Below are positions 111 to 39,679 of a stretch of DNA of 58,354 nt, in pieces. This DNA is from a virus: positions 1-58,354 of the IMG/VR virus record IMGVR_UViG_3300046674_000414, one strand, 5' to 3'. The notes beneath the pieces are model-generated. The model did not search any database, was not told the origin of the DNA, and saw only the letters and a program-made list of their open reading frames with translations. Position 1 is the first letter of the stretch; every line of letters starts with the position of its first letter. The position numbers were made by a program, and so were the translations under genes.

Positions 111-617
111 ATGGCCGCGCCCGGCCGCAAGCCGAAGCCTCACCTTCAGGCCGTCCGCGAGGGCAACACTGGCCGCCGGCCGCTTCGCGAGGGCGTCAAG
201 GTCCCGCCGTCCGAGCTGCGCGAGCCGAACTGGCAGGAGCCGTTCCCCACTGTCCCCGACGAGGAGCAGCGGGAGGTCAACACCCGCTGCCGGGAAGTCG
301 CCCGCCGGGAGTGGCGGCGCATCGTCCCGGTGCTGAAGTTCACGGCGGGGCTCGCCGAGGTCGACACGCAGACGGTCATGGACTACTGCATCTGCGTGGC
401 CCGCATTGACCAGTGCGAACGCGTGATCTCGATGCACGGCCTGCTGATGCGGGGCGAGCGGGGCTGGCAGAAGAACGGGGCGACCACGGTCGTCGGCCAG
501 TACCGGCAGCAGCTCGCCCGGTACATCGGGGAGTTGGGGTTGTCGCCGTCCGCGCGGGGCCGGTTGACGCCGCCGGAGGGTGGCGACGATGGCGACGACG
601 ACGATCCCTTCGACTGA
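111..617 (+). CDS. Terminase small subunit (P27-family-like)
   Basis: 168 aa. N-terminal GRKPKP...EGNTGRRP and central ..W..IVP.L......D...V..YC pattern typical of P27-type TerS. Directly upstream of TerL, with HNH across the genome end. Confidence 0.8.
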   Translation: MAAPGRKPKPHLQAVREGNTGRRPLREGVKVPPSELREPNWQEPFPTVPDEEQREVNTRCREVARREWRRIVPVLKFTAGLAEVDTQTVMDYCICVARIDQCERVISMHGLLMRGERGWQKNGATTVVGQYRQQLARYIGELGLSPSARGRLTPPEGGDDGDDDDPFD

Positions 618-2328
618 GCAGCTCTCCCTAGAGGACTGCTCGGAGGGCTTGCCGGTACCGCGGGCGGCACTGTACGAGCTGGGCATGGACGACGAGGAGA
701 TCGCGGATGCGGTCCTGTCGCGACCGCTGGTGTGCGCGTTCCAGATGCCGGAGCAGGATGGCGCCTGGTTCGATGTGGAGGCGGCCCGGCGGGCGTTGAG
801 GGCGATCGAGTCGTTCAAGCACACCAAGGGCCGCTGGGGCGGGACGTTCCTGCGGCTGGCGCCGTGGCAGAAGCTGTGGGTGATCCTGCCGGTTTTCGGC
901 TGGCTGTGGCATGACCCGGAGCTGGAGCGGGCCGTGCGCGTGGTCCGCGCGGTGTGGATCGAGGTCCCGCGGAAGAACGGCAAGAGCACCCTCTCCTCGG
1001 GGATCGGGTTGGCGCTGCTGCTGGCGGACCGGGAGATCGGTGCCGAGGTGTACGCGGCGGCCGGCTCGTTGGAGCAGGCGAGGCGCGTGTTTGACGACGC
1101 GAAGCGCATGGCGCAGACGTCCAAGGCAGTGAAGGGCCGGGCCGAGGTCCTGACCAGCGTGATTCGGGTGCCGCGTACGGGCGGAATCTTCCGAGCGCTA
1201 AGCCGGATTGCGGAGACGGCGCACGGCCTGAACGTGTCCGGCGCGGTGATCGACGAGGTTCACGTCCATAAGAGCCGGGATCTTATCGATGCGATTGAGA
1301 CGGGTACGGGTGCGCGGGATCAGCCGTTGATCGTTTTCATTACGACGGCGGACGATGCGCAAGAGGGCTCGATCTACGACGAGAAGCACGCGTACACCCG
1401 CAAGGTCGCCGAGAACGTCGTGCAGGACCCCGCCCACTACGGGGTGATCTGGGCTGCGGCTGAGACCGACGACCCTTTCGACGAGGCGACCTGGCGACGC
1501 GCGAACCCCGGACTGGGGACATCGCCGACGCTGGCGTATCTGCGGCGCGAGGCGAACAAGGCGCAGTCCACGCCGAATTACTTTCCGACGTTCCTGCGGC
1601 TGTCGCTGAACATCAGAGAGAAGGCATCGACCCGCTGGATCGATGTCCGTTCCTGGGACCGCGTGGCGGGCATGGTCGACGAGGGCGCCCTGAAGGGCCG
1701 CCGGGCATGGGGTGGGCTCGACCTGTCGGCGGTGTCCGACCTGAGCGCGTGGGTTCTGGCTGTGGAGTCGAAGCAGCCGAATGTTGAGGTTGAGTTGGTG
1801 TCCCGGTTCTGGCTGCCGTCGGAGCGGCTGGAGGATCTGCAACGCCAGTTGCAGGTGCCGTTGGCGCAGTGGGCCCGCGAGGGCTTCCTGAAGCTGACCG
1901 AGGGCGACGCGATCGACTACGACACGATTGAGAAGCAGGTCCTCGCGGACTGCAAGCACCTCGATGTGCAGTGGATCGGCTACGACCGCATGTTCGCCGG
2001 CCAGCTCGTACAGAACGTCGACCGCGACACCAAGAGGGGCGTCAAGGTCACGCCGATCGCGCAGACCTTCCTCGGGCTCGGCCCGGCTTCGAAGGAGTTG
2101 GACCGGTTGCTGCTGGAACGGAGATTCCTGCACGGCGGGCATCCGGTCCTGCGCTGGATGTCCGGGTGTGTGGAGACGATCGCGGACGGCAACGACAACT
2201 ATCGGCCGATGAAGCCGGACAGGAAGAAGTCGCAGGCGCGGATCGACGGGATTGCGGCGACGGTGATGGGCCTGGACGGATACCTGCGGCGGCCGAAGGC
2301 GAAGAGCCGGGTGGCGGTCGGATTCTGA
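580..2328 (+). CDS. Terminase large subunit
   Basis: 582 aa. Walker A-like VPRKNGKST. Size and position after TerS fit. Start uncertain (ATG 580, 589 or 685). Confidence 0.9.
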   Translation: MATMATTTIPSTEQLSLEDCSEGLPVPRAALYELGMDDEEIADAVLSRPLVCAFQMPEQDGAWFDVEAARRALRAIESFKHTKGRWGGTFLRLAPWQKLWVILPVFGWLWHDPELERAVRVVRAVWIEVPRKNGKSTLSSGIGLALLLADREIGAEVYAAAGSLEQARRVFDDAKRMAQTSKAVKGRAEVLTSVIRVPRTGGIFRALSRIAETAHGLNVSGAVIDEVHVHKSRDLIDAIETGTGARDQPLIVFITTADDAQEGSIYDEKHAYTRKVAENVVQDPAHYGVIWAAAETDDPFDEATWRRANPGLGTSPTLAYLRREANKAQSTPNYFPTFLRLSLNIREKASTRWIDVRSWDRVAGMVDEGALKGRRAWGGLDLSAVSDLSAWVLAVESKQPNVEVELVSRFWLPSERLEDLQRQLQVPLAQWAREGFLKLTEGDAIDYDTIEKQVLADCKHLDVQWIGYDRMFAGQLVQNVDRDTKRGVKVTPIAQTFLGLGPASKELDRLLLERRFLHGGHPVLRWMSGCVETIADGNDNYRPMKPDRKKSQARIDGIAATVMGLDGYLRRPKAKSRVAVGF

Positions 2329-2335
2329 CGAGGGG

Positions 2336-3754
2336 GTGCTCGTGGCCTCCTTGCAGAAGCTTCAGCCGGGCGAGCCGTTGTGGTGGGTGGAGCGGATGTG
2401 GAAGGAGCTGGCGGAGCGCCGGCGCTACGCCGACCTCATGCGCCAGTACTACTCGGGTAACCACCCGCTGCCGATGATTCCGGAGAAGGCGCGGTCGGGC
2501 TTCCAGCGGCTCCTGAAGCAGTCCCGGTCGAACTATGTGGGCCTGGTCGTGGACGCCACGGCTGAGCGCCTCCAGATCGACGGGTTCCGCCTCGGTCAGA
2601 CGAAGGTCGGCGACCCGGAGCTGTGGCGCATCTGGCAGGCGAACAGCATGGATGCCGATTCTGATCTTCAGCTCACGGAGGCTGTGAAGGTCGGCAGGTC
2701 GTTTGCGCTGGTGGCGCCGAACCCGGACGACGACGCGACTCCGCTGATCACGGCGGAGGATGCGACTCAGGCCATCGTGGCCTACGAGTCGGGCAGCCGC
2801 CGTAAGCGCCGGGCCGGGCTGAAGACGTTTGTCGACGACTGGACTGGAGATATCTGGACGACGCTGTTCGTCGACGGAATGATCTTCAAGTATCGGGCGC
2901 CGGAGCCGCGGGTCGGCACTACGGGGTCGCCGAGGTGGGTGCGGCGTGAAGTCCAGGGCGAGGACTGGCCGGCGCGGAATCCGCTTGAGGCGGTACCGCT
3001 GGTGGAGATTCCGAACCGGCCGGACCTGCTGGGTGAGGCCCACTCGGAGATCGAGGACGTTCTCAACGATCAGGACCGGATCAACAAGACGCTGATCGAC
3101 CGCATGATGGCGCAGGAGTTCTCGGCGTTCCGGCAGCGGTGGATGACCGGCTACGAGGTTCCGGTCGATGACAACGGGCAGCCGATCGAGCCGTTCAAGG
3201 CGGCGGTGGACCGGCTGTGGGTGATCGAGGACGAGAACGTCAAGATCGGCGAGTTCCAGGCGACTGACCTGCGGCCGTACCTGGATTCGGTCGAGTCGGA
3301 TGTCCAGCACATGGCCGCGCGTACGCGGACGCCCGCACAGTACCTGCTGGGCAAGTTGTCCAACGTCAACGGCGAGACGTTGAAGGCGACCGAGTCCGGC
3401 CTGGTGGCGAAGGTGCGGCAGCGGCAGCGTTCCCTCGGTGAGGGGGAGGAAGAAGTGGCGCGGCTGGCGCTGCGGGCCACCGGGGACGATCGGGACCTTT
3501 CGGCGCTCGAGGTGATCTGGCACAACCCGGAGTTCCGTACCGAGGGTGAACTCGTCGATGCGCTGGTGAAGATGTCGACGCTCGGGGTGCCGCGGGAAGC
3601 GCTGTGGGAACGCTGGGGCGCTTCACAGACGGAGATCGCCCAATGGCGCGAACAGGCCGACCAGCAGGCCGCCAGGATTCTCGGCGGGGACCCGGCAAGC
3701 CTCTTCGGGCCGAAGCCGGACGTGACAGGGATCGGCGATGTCGACGCCGACTGA
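2336..3754 (+). CDS. Portal protein
   Basis: 472 aa ORF immediately after TerL. Alternative GTG start at 2342, 5 nt after GAGGGGG. Confidence 0.85.
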   Translation: MLVASLQKLQPGEPLWWVERMWKELAERRRYADLMRQYYSGNHPLPMIPEKARSGFQRLLKQSRSNYVGLVVDATAERLQIDGFRLGQTKVGDPELWRIWQANSMDADSDLQLTEAVKVGRSFALVAPNPDDDATPLITAEDATQAIVAYESGSRRKRRAGLKTFVDDWTGDIWTTLFVDGMIFKYRAPEPRVGTTGSPRWVRREVQGEDWPARNPLEAVPLVEIPNRPDLLGEAHSEIEDVLNDQDRINKTLIDRMMAQEFSAFRQRWMTGYEVPVDDNGQPIEPFKAAVDRLWVIEDENVKIGEFQATDLRPYLDSVESDVQHMAARTRTPAQYLLGKLSNVNGETLKATESGLVAKVRQRQRSLGEGEEEVARLALRATGDDRDLSALEVIWHNPEFRTEGELVDALVKMSTLGVPREALWERWGASQTEIAQWREQADQQAARILGGDPASLFGPKPDVTGIGDVDAD

Positions 3755-4709
3755 CCTCGGGCGCACCCGCTACGAGCAGGTCACGTCCACGATCCGGGCG
3801 ATCATCGACCGGATTCAGCGGATCTGGGGCGGACTGTCGGCGGCGTCCATCGAGGACGACCTGACCGGAGAGGCCGGCGCGGTCATCGTGTCCGCTGTCG
3901 CCGAGGGCCAGCTCGGCGTGGCGGATGCCGCGCAGGCGTACATTGCCGCGCAGATGGTGGCGCAGGGCGGCTCCGCGTTCGCGGAGGCGGCGCTGGTTTC
4001 GGCGGCGTTCGCGGGGGTCGCCCCGGACGGAGGCCCGCTGGAGACGCTGCTGTTCCTGCCCGCGATCGGTGTACGGCGCCGCCTGGCGGTCGGTATGTCG
4101 CCGGAGGAGGCGATGGCGGGCGGCCTGGCCGACATGGCCATGTATGCCTCGACGGCGATCGCCGATGCGGGCCGCTCGTCGGACCAGGTGGCGATGGCCG
4201 CGCATCCGAACTGCGTGGCCTACGTGCGGGTGGTGCAACTGCCTGCGTGCGCCCGCTGCATCGTCCTCTCGGGGCAGATGTACACGCGGTCGGAGGGGTT
4301 CCTGCGGCATCCGAACTGCGACTGTCAGACGCTGCCGTTGCGGGAGCACGAGTGGCCCGACGTGCCGACTCCGCAGCAGATGTTCGAGCAGCTGTCGGCG
4401 CGCGAGCAGCGGCGGACGTTCACGGTTGCGGGCGCGCAGGCGATCAGGTCGGGCGCGGACGTCGGGCAGATCGTCAACGCCCGCCGCGGGATGTCTCAGC
4501 CCGGGGCCCCGACCACCACTGAGGGCATCACCCGGCGCGGCGTGTACGGGCGGCGTGTTCGGCGCGCTGGCGGCGAGTTCGTCCGCTATCCGGGCCAGCG
4601 GTACAGCCAGGCGGTCGGGCCGCGCCTGACCCCGGAGGCGATCTTCGCGCAGGCGCCTGGGCGGCGGGGGCAGCTCAAGCTGTTGCGCCGGTATGGCTAC
4701 ATCGTCTAG
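3738..4709 (+). CDS. MuF-like / SPP1 gp7-family head morphogenesis protein
   Basis: 323 aa. CARCIVLSG...HPNCDC motif, as in gp7-family HPNCRC. Overlaps the portal stop. Confidence 0.75.
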   Translation: MSTPTDLGRTRYEQVTSTIRAIIDRIQRIWGGLSAASIEDDLTGEAGAVIVSAVAEGQLGVADAAQAYIAAQMVAQGGSAFAEAALVSAAFAGVAPDGGPLETLLFLPAIGVRRRLAVGMSPEEAMAGGLADMAMYASTAIADAGRSSDQVAMAAHPNCVAYVRVVQLPACARCIVLSGQMYTRSEGFLRHPNCDCQTLPLREHEWPDVPTPQQMFEQLSAREQRRTFTVAGAQAIRSGADVGQIVNARRGMSQPGAPTTTEGITRRGVYGRRVRRAGGEFVRYPGQRYSQAVGPRLTPEAIFAQAPGRRGQLKLLRRYGYIV

Positions 4710-5339: not shown

Positions 5340-6284
5340 GTGCCGTACAACAACATCGTGTCGCGCACCGACGCGGCAGCCCTCATCCCCGAGGAAGTCT
5401 CGAACGAGATGCTCGGGAAGGCGATCGAGCAGTCCGCGACGCTGAGCCTGTTCCGTCGGGTCCCGGTGGGGCGAGGACAGGTCCGCTTCCCGGTCCTGTC
5501 CGCCCTGCCCACCGCCTACTTCGTCACGGGTGACACCGGGCTGAAGCAGACGACCGAGGTCAACTGGACGAACAAGTTCCTCAACATCGAGGAGATCGCG
5601 GCGATCATGCCGGTCCCGGACAATGTCCTGGCCGACGTCGACGCCAACGTCTGGGACGAGGCGTCCCCCCTGATCACCGAGGCGTTCGGGCGCTGCCTCG
5701 ACGCGGCCGTGTTCTTCGGCACCAACGCCCCCGCCAGTTGGCCGACCAACATCGCCGCCGCGGCGACCGCTGCCGGTAACGCGGTGACCGCAAACTCGGC
5801 AGCGGCGGCGGGCGCCTTCTTCGGCGACATCGACAACGGCTACGAGAAGGTCGAGGCCGACGGCTTCGAGGTGACCGGCTTCGTCGGCGCGACATCGGTG
5901 AAGTCGAAGCTGCGCAGGTCGCGTGACTCGCAGGGCAAGAAGCTTGACGAGTCCCGCGTCAACGGCGCCCTGACGCTGGTCGACGGCTACCCGATCATCT
6001 ACCCGATGCGCGGCCTGTTCCCGACTGCCAGCGGTTCGCCGCAGCTGTTCATGGGCGACTGGTCCCAGTACGTCGTCGGGGTGCGGTCGGACATTTCGAT
6101 GAAGATCCTCGACCAGGCCGTCATCCAGGACAACACGGGCGCGATCATCTACAACCTGGCCCAGCAGGACATGACCGCGATCCGGCTGACGTTCCGGGTG
6201 GGCTGGCAGGTCGCGAACACCATCAACAACGACCAGCCGACCGAGGCCAGCCGCTACCCGGTGGCCCGCCTCGACCTGCCGTAA
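5340..6284 (+). CDS. Major capsid protein (HK97 fold family)
   Basis: 314 aa. Region LPTAYFVTGDTGLKQTTEVNWTNKFLNIEEIAAIMPVPDNVLADVD is typical of HK97-type capsids. GTG start after ACGGAGG. Confidence 0.9.
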   Translation: MPYNNIVSRTDAAALIPEEVSNEMLGKAIEQSATLSLFRRVPVGRGQVRFPVLSALPTAYFVTGDTGLKQTTEVNWTNKFLNIEEIAAIMPVPDNVLADVDANVWDEASPLITEAFGRCLDAAVFFGTNAPASWPTNIAAAATAAGNAVTANSAAAAGAFFGDIDNGYEKVEADGFEVTGFVGATSVKSKLRRSRDSQGKKLDESRVNGALTLVDGYPIIYPMRGLFPTASGSPQLFMGDWSQYVVGVRSDISMKILDQAVIQDNTGAIIYNLAQQDMTAIRLTFRVGWQVANTINNDQPTEASRYPVARLDLP

Positions 6285-20648: not shown

Positions 20649-21509
20649 ATGCCCGAGTTGTGGATGCCGGGCGCGACCCGGCTGGACATAGGCGATCACG
20701 CGCCGACCGACGGCGGCGGCGCAAAGGCGATCGCACACATCACCTGGGATCGCAACGCGAGCGCCGCGAAGCCGCAGGATCTCGTGCCGTACGAGCGGCT
20801 GGTCGACTACTTCGGCCGGAACGCCTCCGGGAAGAAGTCGGCTCCGCACATCCTGTGGGACCCCTTCGGTGGCAGGTTCACCCAGTTCCTCCCGGCGAAC
20901 TCCCGCTCTAAGAGTCTCGCGGACGCGCCGGGCGGTACGCGCACGAACCGCGCGGGCTCGGTCGTGATCCAGATCGAAGCCCTGTTCTTCCCCTACTGCC
21001 GGGTCGACGGCAAGGTGTACGCGAAGTTGACGGACACCCCGTGCGCGGGCTGGCCGGAGCTGCTGGCGTGGGTGCGGTCGTGGGGCGTGCCGGACGTGTG
21101 GCCGATGGGGCGGCCGACGAGCTTCGCGTCGAACCGGTCGGCATCCACCTGGGCGAAGGCGGGTGGCTGGTATGGCCACAGCCAGGTTCCGGAGAACGGC
21201 CACCAGGACCCCGGCTCATGGCCCGCGTTCACGACCGGCGAGGTGAAGCCGACGCCGTCGTTCGAGCCGTTCCCCGGCGCCGCGTTCTTCAAGGTGGGCC
21301 GCCGGTCTCCGATCGTCGCGGCGATGCGGAAGCGCCTGGTCGCGGAGGGCTGCAACCGGTACCAGTCGTCCGCCGACCCGGACGTGTGGGGGTCGGGTGA
21401 CGTCGCCTCGTACGCGGCGTGGCAGCGGCGGCTCGGCTACACGGGGAGTGCCGCCGACGGCGTCCCCGGCGCTACCTCGTGGGCGCGACTCCGCGTCCCC
21501 AACGTCTGA
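20649..21509 (+). CDS. Endolysin (catalytic N-domain plus C-terminal peptidoglycan-binding domain)
   Basis: 286 aa. C-terminal PG_binding_1-like region (V..MR.RL...G......DG..G..S.A..). Adjacent to the holin. Confidence 0.8.
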   Translation: MPELWMPGATRLDIGDHAPTDGGGAKAIAHITWDRNASAAKPQDLVPYERLVDYFGRNASGKKSAPHILWDPFGGRFTQFLPANSRSKSLADAPGGTRTNRAGSVVIQIEALFFPYCRVDGKVYAKLTDTPCAGWPELLAWVRSWGVPDVWPMGRPTSFASNRSASTWAKAGGWYGHSQVPENGHQDPGSWPAFTTGEVKPTPSFEPFPGAAFFKVGRRSPIVAAMRKRLVAEGCNRYQSSADPDVWGSGDVASYAAWQRRLGYTGSAADGVPGATSWARLRVPNV

Positions 21510-21528
21510 TCGAAAGGAACGATTCACC

Positions 21529-21795
21529 ATGTCCGAGATCAACTTCCCCGACGTCGACACGGTCGTGAAGACGGCCGGAACCTACGGCAGAGACCTTGCC
21601 GAGCGTGTCGTGTGGACGTTCCTCGGCGGGACGACGGCGGTCATCGCGGCGGCCGGTCCGGCCGACATGTTCCACGCCTCGTTCTGGCAGGCAGTCGGGA
21701 CCGGGGGCCTCGCGGCCGTCGTGTCCCTCGGGAAGGGGCTGGTGGCCCGCTGGAGAGGGGCGACGAACTCGGCGTCGCTCGCGCGAGGCGTCTGA
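21529..21795 (+). CDS. Holin (r1t-like)
   Basis: 88 aa with two hydrophobic segments (WTFLGGTTAVIAAAG, AVGTGGLAAVVSLG). Follows the endolysin. Confidence 0.7.
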   Translation: MSEINFPDVDTVVKTAGTYGRDLAERVVWTFLGGTTAVIAAAGPADMFHASFWQAVGTGGLAAVVSLGKGLVARWRGATNSASLARGV

Positions 21796-22336: not shown

Positions 22337-22591
22337 TCACTCTCCCGCGGTGAACTTCCCATCTCGACGAGGGGCTCCGTGCCGCCCTTTGCCCGGCCGT
22401 ACGGCGTGCGCGGCGCGCACTTCGTCGGCGTCGTAGAGGGCGTGGGCGCGGCCCTGTGCGTCGATCTGCCGCTCGACGGCGCGCACGCCCCACCGGGACA
22501 GGGTGCCGCGTGCGCTCCCCGGCTGGATGCCGAGGTGCGCGGCGACCTCCCGGATGGTCCACAGGCCGTCTGTTCTGGCAGGGTCGGTCAC
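22337..22591 (-). CDS. Helix-turn-helix DNA-binding protein
   Basis: 84 aa. LWTIREVAAHLGIQPGSARGTLSRWG is HTH-like. Confidence 0.65.
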   Translation of the reverse strand: MTDPARTDGLWTIREVAAHLGIQPGSARGTLSRWGVRAVERQIDAQGRAHALYDADEVRAAHAVRPGKGRHGAPRRDGKFTAGE

Positions 22592-22869
22592 AGGTCCAGG
22601 TCCCCGGCCGCCTCGTCGGCGAACTCCTGGACGCGCTGCACGGCGTCGAGGATCTCCTCGTCGTCGGGGTCCTCACCGGTGACGTGATCGATGAGGGTCG
22701 TGCGGGTGGCGACGATGCGGGTGGCGTGAACGTAGGCTTCGTCCCGCACGTCCAGCTCCCAGTCGCCGCCCTCGTCGTCGGGCCCCTCCTTGTAGTAGAG
22801 GACGGGATGCTCGGCGGGCGAGTCGAAGAGCTGGTGGATGTGGTGGGCGGTGACGGTGACGATGGACAT
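22588..22869 (-). CDS. Hypothetical acidic protein
   Basis: 93 aa, Asp/Glu-rich. RBS AGGGGGG. ATGA overlap with the next gene. Confidence 0.65.
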   Translation of the reverse strand: MSIVTVTAHHIHQLFDSPAEHPVLYYKEGPDDEGGDWELDVRDEAYVHATRIVATRTTLIDHVTGEDPDDEEILDAVQRVQEFADEAAGDLDL

Positions 22870-22919
22870 GATCCCCCCTGGGAATCGCGACGTCGGGGTG
22901 TTTTCCTGCCTGCGACCCC

Positions 22920-22948
22920 ACTATGCATCACGTGATGCGTAGTGGCAA
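22920..22948 (-). promoter_or_regulatory. Leftward promoter TTGCCA-N17-CATAGT with palindromic operator in the spacer
   Basis: Read on the minus strand. The 14-bp perfect palindrome GCATCACGTGATGC (22925-22938) fills the spacer and -10 edge. Confidence 0.55.
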
Positions 22949-22964
22949 GGGTATCGACGCCCCC

Positions 22965-22993
22965 TTGAAGCCGGGTCCGCAATCGGGCATAGT
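22965..22993 (+). promoter_or_regulatory. Rightward promoter TTGAAG-N17-CATAGT
   Basis: Hexamers with 17-nt spacing. Same -10 hexamer as the divergent promoter 16 nt away. Confidence 0.5.
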
Positions 22994-23045
22994 GACCCAC
23001 AGCCGATGGGCCAAGAAATAGGGCAGCCTGCAACGCAGCGCTACC

Positions 23046-23074
23046 TTCATCCCCGCGCACGCGGGGTGCAAGAC
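23046..23074 (+). repeat. CRISPR type I-E repeat-like unit 1
   Basis: TTCAT-CCCCGCGCACGCGGGG-TGCAAGAC. Same 5+16+8 layout as the E. coli I-E repeat, with 14/16 core identity (repeat recalled from memory). Confidence 0.4.
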
Positions 23075-23076
23075 GA

Positions 23077-23104
23077 TATATTCCCGCACACGCGGGGGCT
23101 CGAC
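23077..23104 (+). repeat. CRISPR type I-E repeat-like unit 2
   Basis: TATATT-CCCGCACACGCGGG-GGCTCGAC. TTCCCGCACACGCGGGGG is identical to the core of the S. thermophilus CRISPR4 repeat as I recall it. Confidence 0.4.
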
Positions 23105-23106
23105 CT

Positions 23107-23140
23107 GAAACCCCCACCACCTCCGGGCGGTGGGGGTTTC
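23107..23140 (+). terminator. Stem-loop terminator
   Basis: Perfect 12-bp stem GAAACCCCCACC / GGTGGGGGTTTC with a 10-nt loop, followed by TTCTTC. Confidence 0.65.
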
Positions 23141-23160
23141 TTCATGCCCGAACGCGAAGC

Positions 23161-23195
23161 GCCCCCTGTACAGGAGTTCAACCCGTACAGGGGGC
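23161..23195 (+). terminator. Second stem-loop (terminator or attenuator)
   Basis: Perfect 11-bp stem GCCCCCTGTAC / GTACAGGGGGC with a 13-nt loop. Confidence 0.5.
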
Positions 23196-23263
23196 GCAAC
23201 CACGTCTCCCCGCCACCGGAGAGGAGTACCGTCCTGAGTGTCTAGGTCAGAACGGAGCTAAGT

Positions 23264-24505
23264 ATGCCCGACCCTGCACCCTCGCACGCTGGGGAACAAC
23301 TGAAAGACCTCCGCCTCGGCCGAGGCATGACACAAGAATGCCTCGCCAACAGGGCGAACATCAGCGTCGGAGTGGTGAAGAAACTGGAACGCGGCGGGAC
23401 CGCCCGCGTCGACACCTACCATCGGCTGGCCCGCGCCCTCGGAGTGGAAACTCAGAACCTGTTCGAAACCGACGGGCCCCACTCCACCACGCGGGCCGAC
23501 GACGACAACATCGACCTCATGCCGCTCCGACAGGCCATCGCTCCGGCTGTCACCTTCACAGGCCGTATCGACCCGCCCATCCTGAGCGTCGCCGAACCCA
23601 ACCTTCCGCAGCTTCAACGGACAGCCCGCGCGGTCGGTGTGGCCTACCACAGCGACCGGTACGGGGAGGTCGCCGAACTCCTCCCCACCCTGGTGCAGTC
23701 CGCCCACGCCGCAGTCAGCCACTTCGACACCGGCCCCGACCATGCCGCAGCGATCCGCGTCCGGTCCGATGTCCTACAGATGGCAGGCCGCTACCTCACC
23801 CAGGTCCGCGCCTACGACCTGGCCCACATCGCACTCAGAGACTCAATCCAAGACGCGGCGAAGATCGAAGACATGGAGGCGGTCGCTGCGGCCGTCTACC
23901 AGCAAGGCTGGTTGCTGATGCGGCAGGGGCGCCTAGATGAGGCCGAGAGGGTCAGTGTGGCCACGGCCGACGCGGTCGAGCCGCGTATCTCACGCGCCAC
24001 GCGTCCGGCCCTCGGAGCCTGGGGAAAGTTGCTGGTGCACGGCAGTGCAGCTGCGGCTCGGAACAATCGGCCGACGGAGGCGCGCGAGATCCTGAGGCTC
24101 GGGCGGACTGCTGGTGCCGCGCTGGGGGGTGCTGAAGCAGTTGCGGTTTCCAGCTGGGGGCGGTTCGACTGGCGGACCGTCGCGTTTCAGGGGATCGAGA
24201 ACCAATTGGTGGCGGAGAAGCCGGACCGGGTCCTACGGCTGTCCGAGAGGATGCCGCAGCCTGTGGACAAGAAGGGGCGCGTGTTCATGCGGCGGCATCT
24301 GCTGGACGTGGCGCACGCCCATCTGATGATGCGGCAGCCCGATGAGGCCACCGACATCCTGTACGTGGTGTTCCATGACACCCCGGAGTGGCTGCGCCAT
24401 CAGCGGATGGCTGCGGATACGTTCCGGGAGGTTCTGAAGAAGGGGAAGCGGCGGCGGTTGTCGGCGAAGCAGAGGGAGCTGGCGTCGTTCTTCGGGGCGC
24501 GGTAA
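23264..24505 (+). CDS. XRE-family HTH regulator with long TPR-like C-terminal domain
   Basis: 413 aa. N-terminal LKDLRLGRGMTQECLANRANISVGVVKKLERG, then ~340 aa of helical-repeat sequence. RBS GGAG. Confidence 0.8.
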   Translation: MPDPAPSHAGEQLKDLRLGRGMTQECLANRANISVGVVKKLERGGTARVDTYHRLARALGVETQNLFETDGPHSTTRADDDNIDLMPLRQAIAPAVTFTGRIDPPILSVAEPNLPQLQRTARAVGVAYHSDRYGEVAELLPTLVQSAHAAVSHFDTGPDHAAAIRVRSDVLQMAGRYLTQVRAYDLAHIALRDSIQDAAKIEDMEAVAAAVYQQGWLLMRQGRLDEAERVSVATADAVEPRISRATRPALGAWGKLLVHGSAAAARNNRPTEAREILRLGRTAGAALGGAEAVAVSSWGRFDWRTVAFQGIENQLVAEKPDRVLRLSERMPQPVDKKGRVFMRRHLLDVAHAHLMMRQPDEATDILYVVFHDTPEWLRHQRMAADTFREVLKKGKRRRLSAKQRELASFFGAR

Positions 24506-26861: not shown

Positions 26862-26877
26862 GACCTGATCAACGCTG

Positions 26878-26924
26878 TGCCCTCGGCAGGATTCGAACCT
26901 GCGACACCGGCTTTAGGAGAGCAG
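26878..26924 (-). other. attP core: 3' portion of a tRNA-Arg(CCT) gene
   Basis: Minus strand reads CTCCTAA (anticodon loop, CCT) AGCCG GTGTC GCAGG-TTCGAAT-CCTGC CGAGGGC-A. There is no 5' half, and the 5' anticodon-stem strand is mismatched. Confidence 0.75.
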
Positions 26925-26976
26925 CGTTCACATCCGACATACGTCCTGATCGGACCCGGTGCGGTTGCGCTTCGAG

Positions 26977-27004
26977 TGATCGTTTGGTCGATATTTGGTA
27001 GATC
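26977..27004 (+). repeat. attP arm repeat, copy 2
   Basis: TGATCGTTTGGTCGATATTTGGTAGATC. Overlaps the integrase stop codon. Confidence 0.7.
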
Positions 27005-28298
27005 AACTCGCGCAGTGCTTCCGGAGGTTCACCCGGCCCCACATAGTGCTCATCCCCAGGTTACCCATGGCCCGCCAGAACGTCTCCTCCAGGCCGTCCA
27101 GCCGTTCGGCGCGCATCGAAGGTGTCGGCTTCTGGTAGTGCCGCTTGATGCCCGGCCGCTTATGCCCGGCCGCCTCGAACGCCAGAGGCTCCTTCACCCC
27201 GAGCTCCGACTGCATCGTGTCGTGCAGCGCACGCAACGCCCGCATGTCCAGACCCGGCAGGATCGGCTCCCACGCCGCCCGGTACGCCACCCCCTGCCGC
27301 TTCTCGCGCGCGTCGCGGCCGTCGGCCGCCGGCCGGAAAATGCGCGACCAGTTCCCACGCCGCCACGGCTGCCCCGACGGGGTGCAGAAAATCCGCGCAT
27401 GCGGCCAGTCGGCGAGGTGGTGCCGGATCAGTGTCGCAAGGAACGGCGGCACGTCCACGTCCCGGGTTGAGCCGTCGTTCTTCGTAGGCTCCAGGCGGAT
27501 GGTGTAGCCCTTCTTGCTGCCGTCCTCGTCGCGCTCCTGGTACTCGGCGAACTCCTCTTTGATCCGGATGATCGGGCACACGAACTCGCCCGCGCCCCAC
27601 GGCTGCCGCCGAATCAGCAGCGTGTTGTCCCGATGCAGCCCGAGGCCCTCGCCCCACCGGGGCCCGAGGAACGCCGTCGTCAGCACCCACATGCCGATGG
27701 CCGGCCCGAGCCGCTCCGCCAGGAGGACGGCATCCTCCGGACGTGGGCCGCCGTCCCGCTCGATCTTCGGCGGCTTCATCCACCCCGCGTCGCCCGCCGT
27801 CTCCTTCGTACGCCTGCGCCCGAAGAGCGGGTTCACGGTCACGTACCCGGCGTCCACGGCCGCGGTCATGATGGTCGACATCAAGCTCACCGCGTGCCCG
27901 CGGCTGACGTCCTCGCAGGGCATCGTCTGCTGCCAGGTGTCGACGTCGAACCACGAGATCTTCCGGAGGGGGACGGCGCCCCATCGGGGCAGGATGTCGT
28001 TCTCCAGCCTGTCCCACCGCCTGCTGCCCGTCGCGCCCCGCTTCTTGCGTGACGCCATGAAGGTGCGCGAGAAACTTCCGAACGTCGTGTTGACCTTGTC
28101 CGGGTCGATCCACGTCCCCTCCCGGATCGCCCGCTCCTGCGCCTCCCCCCACTCGATGGCCGCCGTCTTCGTAGGGAATCCGGACTCCGACAGCCACTCC
28201 AGGGCGTGCCCCTCCGGAGCCTTATACAGGACCCGCCAGGTGAACTGCTTCGTCTCTTTACCGTTGCGCATCTTGTAGCGCTTCGTCGCATGAGCCAT
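27003..28298 (-). CDS. int: Tyrosine integrase
   Basis: 431 aa from ATG 28298 (RBS GGAGGGGGGAAG; the 497-aa ORF extends further upstream). SAM-like N-domain and C-terminal catalytic region ...LHDTMQSELG...GHKRPGIKRHY. Next to attP. Confidence 0.9.
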   Translation of the reverse strand: MAHATKRYKMRNGKETKQFTWRVLYKAPEGHALEWLSESGFPTKTAAIEWGEAQERAIREGTWIDPDKVNTTFGSFSRTFMASRKKRGATGSRRWDRLENDILPRWGAVPLRKISWFDVDTWQQTMPCEDVSRGHAVSLMSTIMTAAVDAGYVTVNPLFGRRRTKETAGDAGWMKPPKIERDGGPRPEDAVLLAERLGPAIGMWVLTTAFLGPRWGEGLGLHRDNTLLIRRQPWGAGEFVCPIIRIKEEFAEYQERDEDGSKKGYTIRLEPTKNDGSTRDVDVPPFLATLIRHHLADWPHARIFCTPSGQPWRRGNWSRIFRPAADGRDAREKRQGVAYRAAWEPILPGLDMRALRALHDTMQSELGVKEPLAFEAAGHKRPGIKRHYQKPTPSMRAERLDGLEETFWRAMGNLGMSTMWGRVNLRKHCAS

Positions 28299-28332
28299 GA
28301 GGTCTTCCCCCCTCCGCGTTGCCTCGCCGGGG

Positions 28333-28743
28333 CTACGCCGACCGCCTGATGGAGTAGCTGGCCGGCGAGCGAGCCCACCACGGCGAGCGCTCGGACTGGT
28401 GTTGCGTGATGTAGTGGGCGCCGCGCTCGCTGATGAGGTCCGCGCGCACCGTGTAGGCGATGTACTCGGAGTGGTCGTCGACCGCGACGGCGACACCTCC
28501 GCCCATCACCTCTTGCCGCTCCATTGTGATGGGAATGCGTGGCCCAAGTGGTACGCCAGGCGGCCGGGGGTGCCAGCGTCGCGCCTGCTGCGTGAACAGC
28601 TCGACGAAGACGGGTACACCCTCATCACTGATGTCGTCGTAGTGGAAGTGGAAGCGGCATCCGCTTCCGTCTTCGTAGTCCTCGATCCAGGGCGTGAAGT
28701 ATTTCTCGCCCTGAGCGTGTCTCTTGACCTCGATCGTGAGCAT
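28333..28743 (-). CDS. Hypothetical protein between repressor and integrase
   Basis: 136 aa. Visibly less GC-rich stretch. No family recognised. Confidence 0.6.
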   Translation of the reverse strand: MLTIEVKRHAQGEKYFTPWIEDYEDGSGCRFHFHYDDISDEGVPVFVELFTQQARRWHPRPPGVPLGPRIPITMERQEVMGGGVAVAVDDHSEYIAYTVRADLISERGAHYITQHQSERSPWWARSPASYSIRRSA

Positions 28744-39397: not shown

Positions 39398-39646
39398 GTG
39401 ACCGCTCAGCAACCCATCGACGCCCTCCTCGACGCGTACGTGGACCAACGCAGCGCCCTGCGCCGCGTACTCGCCCTCGTCGCCTGCCACGCAGACGAAA
39501 TCGCCGCAGACCCCGCCCTCGTCCTCAAGGCCCTGGACGCCCACCCCAGGTGCGTCGCCATCTGCCCGCCCGGATGCACCGGCGACTGCGAACCCCACCG
39601 CGCCGTCTGGGAGCGCTACACCGCCCTCGACCCCAGCCGCAGCTAG
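39398..39646 (+). CDS. Hypothetical protein
   Basis: 82 aa. GTG after GCAGGAGAA. Confidence 0.55.
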   Translation: MTAQQPIDALLDAYVDQRSALRRVLALVACHADEIAADPALVLKALDAHPRCVAICPPGCTGDCEPHRAVWERYTALDPSRS

Positions 39647-39660
39647 CCGCACACGACACA

Positions 39661-39679
39661 GCCCCGCACACGGCGGGGC
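39661..39679. terminator. Bidirectional stem-loop
   Basis: GCCCCGC-ACACG-GCGGGGC, between convergent genes. Confidence 0.5.

Follow-up and report, generated by a model that had tools for sequence, protein, structure and literature searches.

The small intergenic cassette at positions 23000-23146 of a viral genome of 58,354 nucleotides (IMG/VR record IMGVR_UViG_3300046674_000414; this whole stretch of DNA is referred to below as the window) carries two abutting hairpin units that very probably originate from the repeats of a type I-E CRISPR (clustered and regularly interspaced short palindromic repeats) system. On balance, the cassette is best explained as encoding an anti-CRISPR hairpin decoy RNA, and its sequence places it in a family of pseudo-repeat cassettes carried by Streptomyces phages and prophages. 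A sequence-only reading of the same DNA, made without database searches, had picked out the two units and proposed an RNA of this kind; the units lie exactly where it placed them and have the sequences that it gave, with 2 nt (GA) between them and a further CT between unit 2 and the terminator hairpin, and the comparisons described here support the proposal as a candidate.

The repeat set used for comparison was built by scanning one genome per species for the core CCCGC[AG]CACGCGGGG at CRISPR spacing; more than 120 loci, many of them actinomycete, were listed among the matches, and consensus repeats were derived from these. The common Streptomyces I-E repeat, CTGCTCCCCGCGCACGCGGGGATGGTCCC with small variants, is found in at least 13 Streptomyces loci. 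T plus the unit 1 stem-loop (TCCCCGCGCACGCGGGG; hairpin CCCCGC-GCAC-GCGGGG at 23051-23066) is identical to this repeat at 17 of 17 positions, the loop included, and the loci that share the 17-mer are L008, L013, L015, L017/48, L054, L060, L061, L078, L083, L086, L092, L098 and L103. The sequence-only reading was to be abandoned if, among other conditions, no plausible host carried an I-E repeat within a few mismatches of either unit; it survives this comparison because plausible hosts do carry I-E repeats with a stem-loop identical to that of unit 1. Unit 2 (TTCCCGCACACGCGGGGG) is identical at 18 of 18 positions to the Streptococcus repeat GTTTTTCCCGCACACGCGGGGGTGATCC (L029), as that reading had noted, and at 17 of 18 to the Kitasatospora (L122) and Actinosynnema (L010) variant TCCCCGCACACGCGGGGG and to the repeat of Nocardiopsis (L058); the difference is one C>U change, by which a C-G pair becomes a U-G wobble. 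Both loops are natural I-E loop variants and both units have a 16-nt stem-loop of the CCCCGC-N4-GCGGGG type by which I-E arrays are recognized. The stem-loop is preserved and matches Streptomyces I-E repeats. The paired units also exceed chance: CCCGCNNNNGCGGG occurs three times in the 58 kb, counting both strands, against 1.29 expected, and two of these three copies are the units, which are direct, 31 nt apart and identical at 16 of 18 positions.

A search of 2.9 million viral contigs with the unit 1 17-mer found it in 59 viral loci, 46 of which have a further I-E hairpin within ~100 nt or a handle-like flank, so that the 17-mer is mostly diagnostic of I-E repeats. Several of these loci (L127, L128, L185/186 and others) are small cassettes in high-GC phage contigs, with terminators much like that of the window. 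The order of parts is promoter, pseudo-repeats, degenerate last repeat and terminator in L127, L128, L185/186, L191, L437 and the phage ZL12. L191 belongs to a prophage in the sequenced Streptomyces genome GCA_044757425.1. A search in which CATAGTG had to precede an I-E hairpin returned L134, L152, L185/186, L191, L205, L225, L273 and L303 together with the window; the box is conserved upstream of the cassettes in these loci and reads gCATAGTGa in the window and gCCATAGTGg ahead of the related pseudo-repeat cassettes. The promoter call in the window is supported by this shared -10 box. The 3' flank of unit 1 (TGCAAGAC) resembles the degenerate last-repeat flanks of the related cassettes (TTGCGAAG, ATACGAAA), the last-repeat-type flank of the window being GGGGTGCAAGAC and those of the family GGGGTTGCGAAG and GGGGATACGAAAG, and the terminator tail TTC(G/T)TCAT is common to the window and the family (TTCGTCAT and CTTCCTCATGCC in relatives). 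The orientation of the family cassettes agrees with the + strand of the window, which is also taken to be the functional strand because the wobbles give unit 2 its 7-bp stem (five Watson-Crick and two G-U pairs around an ACAC loop) in the + strand RNA only.

Two cultured lineages carry comparable cassettes that have escaped annotation. In ZL12 there are three pseudo-repeats and a terminator ending TTCGTCAT; in Cumberbatch, Piccadilly, Ignacio and Vondra six pseudo-repeats with six different loops lie between genes 54 and 55. The -10 box in the ZL12 and Cumberbatch-cluster cassettes is TACGGT or TACGAT. The four aligned genomes of the Cumberbatch cluster have essentially identical cassettes, with one substitution in 381 nt, and thus offer no covariation to analyse. 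The sequence-only reading knew of no such element in Streptomyces phages; this holds for the literature, in which our search found no paper on such elements in these phages, but not for the sequences, since ZL12 and Cumberbatch with its relatives carry cassettes.

The window differs from its relatives in the distance between its units. Pairs of I-E hairpins in viral contigs peak at gaps of 33-36 nt, corresponding to a 20-21-nt insert, whereas the insert in the window is 2-3 nt (the hairpins are 16 nt apart, which is made up of an 8-nt handle position, the 2-3 nt and a 5-nt flank). Close family members have pseudo-spacers of 13-27 nt and canonical handles on their internal repeats, and the window has neither. 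Near-abutting I-E pairs are rare, with only L203 and L129 found besides the window, and a pattern search of the viral contigs with both units together gave no matches. By its sequence, the cassette stands at the spacer-less extreme of a family in which the other members have pseudo-spacers of 20-21 nt.

Some further features of the relatives were observed. A conserved leader hairpin, CCG(C/T)CGG-N4-6-CCG(A/G)CGG, precedes the first pseudo-repeat in L185 (3318-3340), L191 (with GGGCGG), L225, L273 and L303; only CCGATGG of it is retained in the window. A core, (C/A)AGGGGCGT(A/G), recurs in the pseudo-spacers of different cassettes at the same distance from the handle (L185 3267-3287, L293 and L303); CAGGGGCGTGCA occurs in those of L293 (~2830-2850 and 2879-2900) and L303 (~3960-3980), and AAGGGCAG..TGCA is shared as well. 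The shared core suggests a common conserved target in Streptomyces hosts; the pseudo-spacers of the relatives had no match in the fetched 8-kb CRISPR loci.

The two units are followed directly by an intrinsic terminator, described in the sequence-only reading as a perfect 12-bp stem at 23107-23140. The description is borne out: the hairpin has 12 perfect and two inner pairs, a folding energy of -29.4 kcal/mol and z = -6.5. Neither unit has the form of an intrinsic terminator, as the sequences 3' of them (TGCAAGAC and GGCTCGAC) contain no T-run; only 23107-23140 qualifies.

The cassette is linked to a small operon. It sits in the 394-nt gap between a leftward gene for an acidic protein of 93 residues and a rightward regulator gene with helix-turn-helix (HTH) and tetratricopeptide repeat (TPR) features, here called the HTH-TPR gene, and downstream of the acidic-protein gene on the same leftward strand lies a gene for an HTH protein of 84 residues. 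The divergent promoter of the acidic-protein/HTH operon is overlapped by a 28-bp palindrome, CCACTATGCATCAC/GTGATGCGTAGTGG (22918-22945), which is likely to be an operator, judging from the palindromes at the same position in L128 (TATGCCTCAC/GTGAGGCA) and ZL12 (CCTTGCAGTAC/GTACTGCAAGG). The HTH protein has 26 relatives in a large protein collection, the named ones from Streptomyces and Actinacidiphila. Genomic context was read for about 13 loci with an HTH homologue (11 look-ups, L128 and the window), and in five of these (the window, L128, L185/186, L191 and L437) an I-E pseudo-repeat cassette lies within 1 kb of it. In the 13 related loci the HTH gene is always preceded by a variable small gene, which in the cassette-bearing loci belongs to one of two acidic families with an isoelectric point (pI) of ~4.1-4.2: family A, formed by the 93-residue protein of the window and an 85-residue protein of L191 (48% identity, E = 4e-14), and family B, formed by the proteins of L128, L185 and L437 (47% identity, E = 3e-33). 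The layout of ZL12 is similar, with an unannotated leftward small open reading frame (ORF) that has an L128-like start region, a palindromic operator and the cassette; in L438, which carries a relative of family A, both the HTH gene and a cassette are missing. With its variable small acidic protein, its conserved HTH protein and the palindrome at its promoter, the operon looks like an acr-aca pair, in position, with the HTH protein Aca-like by position, and the 93-residue protein may by analogy be put forward as a candidate protein anti-CRISPR. Comparisons with Pfam, PHROGs of known function and the PDB gave no match for the acidic and HTH proteins, and none to a known Acr or Aca family. A close-relative search of the viral contigs with the 93- and 84-residue proteins found none, and a word-indexed protein search with the 93-residue protein returned only itself, even though the L191 homologue (48%) exists. 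An AlphaFold single-sequence model of this protein is poor (mean pLDDT, the predicted local distance difference test score, of 51), too poor for fold comparison.

On the comparison with other genomes, the cassette behaves as an accessory module, since the stretch that holds it is missing from four IMG/VR relatives of the HTH-TPR gene (L001-L004), which have neither the operon nor the units. All four (at ~2880-2990) keep the hairpin of 23159-23197 and a palindrome upstream of the HTH-TPR gene. In L001 and L003 a terminator stands at the position of 23107-23146, directly 3' of the preceding + strand gene, in L001 with the shared TTCGTCATGCCC tail. The hairpin has a 16-bp stem, GCGCCCCCTGTACAGG/CCCGTACAGGGGGCGC, and together with the palindrome CCGTCCTGA...TCAGAACGG (23229-23255) it travels with the HTH-TPR gene; the two are probably an insulating terminator and the operator/promoter of that gene (-10 TACCGT/TAGCGT). 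With this conserved promoter region of its own (TACCGT/TAGCGT, ~23227), the HTH-TPR gene would be independent of the 22965-22993 promoter.

We propose that 23000-23146 holds a gene, derived from I-E repeats, for a small non-coding RNA and belongs to a temperate Streptomyces phage. Transcription from the promoter at 22965-22993 would give an RNA of ~145 nt in which two neighbouring hairpins of the repeat type stand between a leader of 46 nt and the terminator. Each hairpin would copy the Cas6e-binding stem-loop of a different Streptomycetaceae I-E repeat variant, and because the two differ in their loops, more host repeat variants would be covered. The host Cas6e would bind the hairpins and perhaps cut them; in I-E systems Cas6e remains on its hairpin after a single turnover. 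The product reaching from the leader to the first hairpin (~67 nt, from the start at ~23000 to a cut after G23066) may also collect Cas7, and as it has no proper 5' handle it should be unable to build a working Cascade. Cas6e and Cascade subunits would in this way be titrated away from the CRISPR RNAs (crRNAs) of the host, and interference would be inhibited.

A number of observations weigh against this proposal. The 5' flanks of the units and their 8-nt handle positions show no likeness to the repeats of any of the more than 120 arrays compared, and the best whole-unit scores are 23/33 and 21/33; in place of a conserved 5' flank and a ATGGTCCC-like handle, unit 1 is flanked by TTCA and TGCAAGAC and unit 2 by TATAT and GGCTCGAC. 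Just 3' of the cleavage site, U or G stands in place of A, which may keep Cas6e from cutting. The reverse complement of unit 1 reads TGC-hairpin-ATG, making its flanks slightly better in the opposite orientation, within chance; the best extended match, 22/23 over 82% of a Nocardiopsis repeat, is also in the opposite orientation (within our own set of more than 120 arrays and not the SRUFinder database). By the SRUFinder rule for solitary repeat units (SRUs), which calls for a solitary unit with 90% identity or more along 90% or more of the repeat (Camara-Wilpert et al., Nature 2023, PMC10651486), neither unit qualifies at full length, because only the hairpins mimic the repeat and the flanks and handle do not: the exact match covers 17 of 29 nt (59%) and two partial units abut. 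The promoter sequence TTGAAG-N17-CATAGT reported in the sequence-only reading is present, but at 8 of 12 consensus positions it falls just under the scan threshold. When the transcript is folded as a whole, the predicted structure of lowest energy is a nested one in place of two hairpins, since the near-identical palindromic stems allow the 5' arm of unit 1 to pair with the 3' arm of unit 2 (23051-23097); the nested fold is possibly a conformational switch or an artefact of prediction, and co-transcriptional folding would be expected to favour two local hairpins. Hairpins of the form CCCCGC-N4/5-GCGGGG also occur as plain terminators, within genes (PRARG codons, L150) and in repetitive extragenic palindromic (REP)-like elements. 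Apart from L203 and L129 no close relative with the abutting layout was found, and as most relatives are spacer-bearing, Cracr-like mini-arrays, either a decoy or a guide role may apply. Finally, 3413 spacers from the fetched arrays showed no clear targeting of the window, the best match being 23/25, which is at chance level.

Several rival explanations were weighed. That the cassette is the decayed and now non-functional remnant of a Cracr-type mini-array that has lost its first repeat and pseudo-spacer is rather unlikely. Such decay would explain why the window lacks the 13-27-nt pseudo-spacers and canonical internal handles of its family, why the flanks of both units are degenerate, why the leader departs from the conserved leader hairpin of the family after CCGATGGG and why no second copy of the layout was found; the stems, however, are perfect, the loops are natural I-E variants, the -10 box and terminator are intact, last repeats with degenerate flanks are normal in intact cassettes, and the hairpin alone is the essential part of a decoy (PMC10651486). 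Ordinary GC hairpins acting as tandem terminators, an insulator or RNA-stabilizing elements in a 70% GC genome, convergent and unrelated to CRISPR, are distinctly unlikely. The caveat of convergence raised in the sequence-only reading was fair on sequence alone, as a similar hairpin at 39661-39679 (CCCCGC-ACACG-GCGGGG, with a 5-nt loop, between convergent genes ending at 39646 on the + strand and ~39700 on the - strand) is an ordinary bidirectional terminator and no repeat unit, the same stem is found elsewhere in REP-like inverted pairs and in coding sequence, and the flanks of the units have no I-E features. The family context has largely removed it: the -10 box, the last-repeat flank, the terminator with its tail and the linked HTH and acidic genes are shared with cassettes that carry full I-E repeats. 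Moreover, no T-run follows either unit and a separate strong terminator lies directly 3', the loop and closing T are identical to those of real repeats, and two direct copies stand 31 nt apart where ~1.3 are expected per window. It is very improbable that the region encodes a protein and that the hairpins are incidental (HPRARG and FPHTRG codons). An ATG-initiated frame of 79 codons (ORF79, 23006-23245, +) does span the units, and the 17-mer lies inside a genuine gene in L150; yet the G+C content at third codon positions of ORF79 is 0.70, against 0.81-0.94 in the neighbouring genes, no frame stands out, and ORF79 runs through the strong terminator and the conserved hairpin upstream of the HTH-TPR gene. 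The region is probably non-coding.

An active guide RNA is also an unlikely explanation. Here the promoter would set the 5' end in place of an upstream repeat, AUGGGCCA (23006-23013) would serve as a handle and 23014-23045 as a 32-nt guide, and unit 1 would form the 3' hairpin to which Cas6e binds, while unit 2 would take up further Cas6e; the RNA would load host I-E Cascade and redirect it against a host or rival-element sequence, such as a defence locus or a rival phage, for cleavage or for Cracr/crlRNA-like repression. The 8-mer ATGGGCCA at 23006-23013 resembles the I-E 5' handle (ATGGTCCA/ATGGCCCC); seven of its eight positions agree with ATGGTCCA, the handle of a pseudo-repeat in L191, and exactly 32 nt, the canonical spacing, separate it from unit 1. 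Scored with a position weight matrix of handles, it ranks among the top 0.8% of window 8-mers, and no other position in the leader scores positive. The relatives are clearly guide-bearing, and Cracr arrays of type I-E have been described from viruses (bioRxiv 10.1101/2024.10.29.618823). Against this, the match was noticed post hoc, with a chance of ~0.01-0.02 for a spacing of 31-33 nt and ~0.14 for any spacing of 18-36 nt; there is no upstream hairpin to yield the 5'-OH end of the handle, which is preceded by 5-7 extra nucleotides; and CCGATGGGCC may descend from the arm of the family leader hairpin (CCGTCGGGCG). The 32-mer has no significant match in phage and plasmid collections or in the fetched loci, a protospacer search with 23001-23050 gave only chance-level matches, to Burkholderia and Neorhizobium plasmids, and the likeness of the leader to family pseudo-spacers is at the level of shuffled sequence. 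One such likeness, to the pseudo-spacers of L293 and ZL12 (shared TAGGGCA), was discarded after 176 of 300 shuffles scored as well. If the guide explanation were true, a viral crRNA could obtain its 5' end without Cas6e, and this would take place within a three-part anti-CRISPR island (RNA, new acidic Acr-like families and a new Aca-like HTH) widespread in Streptomyces phages.

The hairpin-based searches brought up other elements. REP-like inverted pairs, GTCATCCCCGCGAAAGCGGGGACCC...GGGTCCCCGCTTTCGCGGGGATGAC, which have the I-E repeat stem, are abundant in metagenome contigs (L313-L432, e.g. L325 4503-4552), and in the metagenome scan for abutting I-E hairpins such pairs (GTCATCCCCGCGAAAGCGGGGAC...) dominate among the matches listed; this element will contaminate hairpin-based searches for repeat mimics. 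L150, considered as a single unit combining the 5' flank of unit 1 with the 3' flank of unit 2, lies inside an HNH-like gene and was rejected as a chance match.

Features of the cassette, its surroundings and related loci. Positions are given in the record named in the second column.
Feature	Record	Position	Strand	Details
Promoter-like site	window	22965-22993	+	TTGAAG (22965-22970)-N17-CATAGT (22988-22993); predicted start near 23000
Leader	window	23000-23045	+	~46 nt; unique to the window phage
Unit 1, I-E pseudo-repeat	window	23046-23074	+	TTCAT-CCCCGCGCACGCGGGG-TGCAAGAC; fold -12.6 kcal/mol
Unit 2, I-E pseudo-repeat	window	23077-23104	+	TATATT-CCCGCACACGCGGG-GGCTCGAC; fold -10.4 kcal/mol
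Intrinsic terminator	window	23107-23146	+	stem 23107-23140; tail TTCTTCATG
HTH-TPR regulator gene	window	23264-24505	+	413 residues; phrog_5823
Divergent promoter of the acidic-protein/HTH operon	window	22918-22948	-	TTGCCA-N17-CATAGT
Acidic-protein gene	window	22588-22869	-	93 residues; pI 4.15; 24 D/E versus 5 K/R
HTH gene	window	22337-22591	-	84 residues; phrog_34233/phrog_597
Terminase	window	580-2328		
Portal	window	2336-3754		
Capsid	window	5340-6284		
Tape-measure-sized ORF	window			
Endolysin (lysis cassette)	window	20649-21509		
Holin (lysis cassette)	window	21526-21795		
Related cassette	L127			GTGCTCCCTGCGCATGCGGGGGTGGTCC, 22 nt, CTGCTCCCCGCGCACGCGGGGATAAGCCC, then CCCCCACCttggGGTGGGGG CTTCCTCATGCC
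Related cassette	L128			CTGCTCCCCGCTCCGTGCGGGGTTGGCCC, 21 nt, TTGCTCCCCGCGCACGCGGGGTTGCGAAG, then terminator and CTTCGTCGTG
Related cassette	L185/186			CATAGTG -10 box, leader, two repeats around a 21-nt insert, last repeat ending ATACGAAAG, terminator, TTCGTCAT
ZL12 cassette	GQ919031	~83820-84010		L434 1130-1320
Cumberbatch cassette	MT451982	34596-34960		L433 1190-1500; also L439-L441
Acidic/HTH module	L191	2747-3219		
Acidic/HTH module	L128	551-1550		
Acidic/HTH module	L185	2708-3213		
Acidic/HTH module	L437	2708-3228		

The window is a complete-looking phage contig of 58 kb (~70% GC) with terminase, portal and capsid genes, and it also has a central regulatory region. Its DNA similarity is patchy only, to the Streptomyces phages Kromp, VWB, RP3 and ZL12, and a BLAST comparison of the cassette region and 50 kb of the window with cultured phages found no close relative; on these similarities, it is classed as a singleton Streptomyces phage. 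Rfam at a permissive threshold gave no relevant family in the region, and ARAGORN found no tRNA there, which makes a tRNA-derived attP core unlikely at this position. Elsewhere, 26870-28200 shares ~76% identity with the attP region of RP3, an actinophage from S. rimosus, and a 497-residue ORF at 27003-28496 (-) has no Pfam match at 1e-5; together these probably form the integration module, which could help to name the host.

In the literature searched, elements of this kind are described from other bacteria but not from Streptomyces phages. Systems of type I-E are widespread in Streptomyces, and their activity is poorly understood. Both Racr (2023) and Cracr (preprint 2024-26) elements have been tested only in Proteobacteria, so that the decoy explanation, if true, would extend repeat mimicry to the phages of Streptomyces. 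It would also mean that the bare Cas6e hairpin is enough for a decoy and that such hairpins can be stacked, each copying a different host repeat variant; the six-unit Cumberbatch cassette suggests the same stacking strategy. Current SRU finders would miss hairpin-only units of this type. The linked genes provide a lead, as the conserved HTH gene marks the cassettes and the two acidic families are candidates for new anti-CRISPR proteins, with the HTH protein as their candidate regulator. Experiments are feasible now, as there are related cassettes in phages in culture (ZL12 and, on S. sanglieri, the Cumberbatch cluster). Genome editing that relies on endogenous I-E systems in Streptomyces could be disturbed by such RNAs.

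With the Streptomyces I-E repeat CTGCTCCCCGCGCACGCGGGGATGGTCCC, unit 1 of the window shares the closing T, the 6-bp stem and the GCAC loop (17/17), and both units share the length of 28-29 nt. The units differ in the 5' flank and the 8-nt handle, and the U-A closing pair of the repeat becomes U-U in unit 1 and G-U in unit 2. Spacers of ~32 nt, an array and nearby cas genes are all lacking: as the sequence-only reading had observed, only 2 nt lie between the units, and no Cas family was found among the window ORFs scanned. Virus-borne mini-CRISPR arrays, which are used in conflicts between viruses (Medvedeva et al. 2019, PMC6858448), likewise consist of repeat units on a virus that lacks cas genes and depend on the Cas proteins of the host; they carry full-length spacers against rival viruses, whereas the window has no spacer and its candidate guide (23014-23045) has no detectable target.

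The closest parallels are the Racr and Cracr elements. Racrs are solitary repeat units on phages and plasmids, two of which, of type I-E, worked in Pseudomonas; in RacrIF1 the stem-loop is essential and the 5' handle dispensable, the active RNA comprises the 70-76 nt from the start to the Cas6f cut and nucleates a Cas6f-Cas7f filament without Cas5 and Cas8, and racr genes are reported to adjoin acr genes (PMC10651486). The cassette of the window resembles them in being phage-borne and intergenic, on a mobile element with no array and no cas genes, in having a predicted promoter directly upstream, in copying the stem-loop of a probable host CRISPR type without a functional spacer or 5' handle, in its predicted product of ~67 nt and in adjoining a small-protein/HTH operon. 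It differs in having two abutting, non-identical units that match over 17-18 of their 28-29 nt, and in its Streptomyces host. Cracrs, by which Cas proteins are redirected to cas promoters or toxin genes, are mini-arrays of viruses with pseudo-spacers of 21-24 nt, and the survey that described them includes I-E arrays and Actinomycetota (Liu et al., bioRxiv 10.1101/2024.10.29.618823). The relatives of the window (L127, L128, L185/186, L191, L437 and ZL12) resemble these, with I-E pseudo-repeats around 20-21-nt pseudo-spacers, sometimes several in series, near putative acr genes, and they have the promoter box, last repeat and terminator in common with the window. With 2-3 nt between its repeats, it has essentially no pseudo-spacer in the position that defines a Cracr, and it is for this reason Racr-like and not Cracr-like. 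By analogy with these systems, the cassette is a candidate for an element that is Racr-like in action and of a Cracr-type family by descent, while being a strict member of neither class as now defined.

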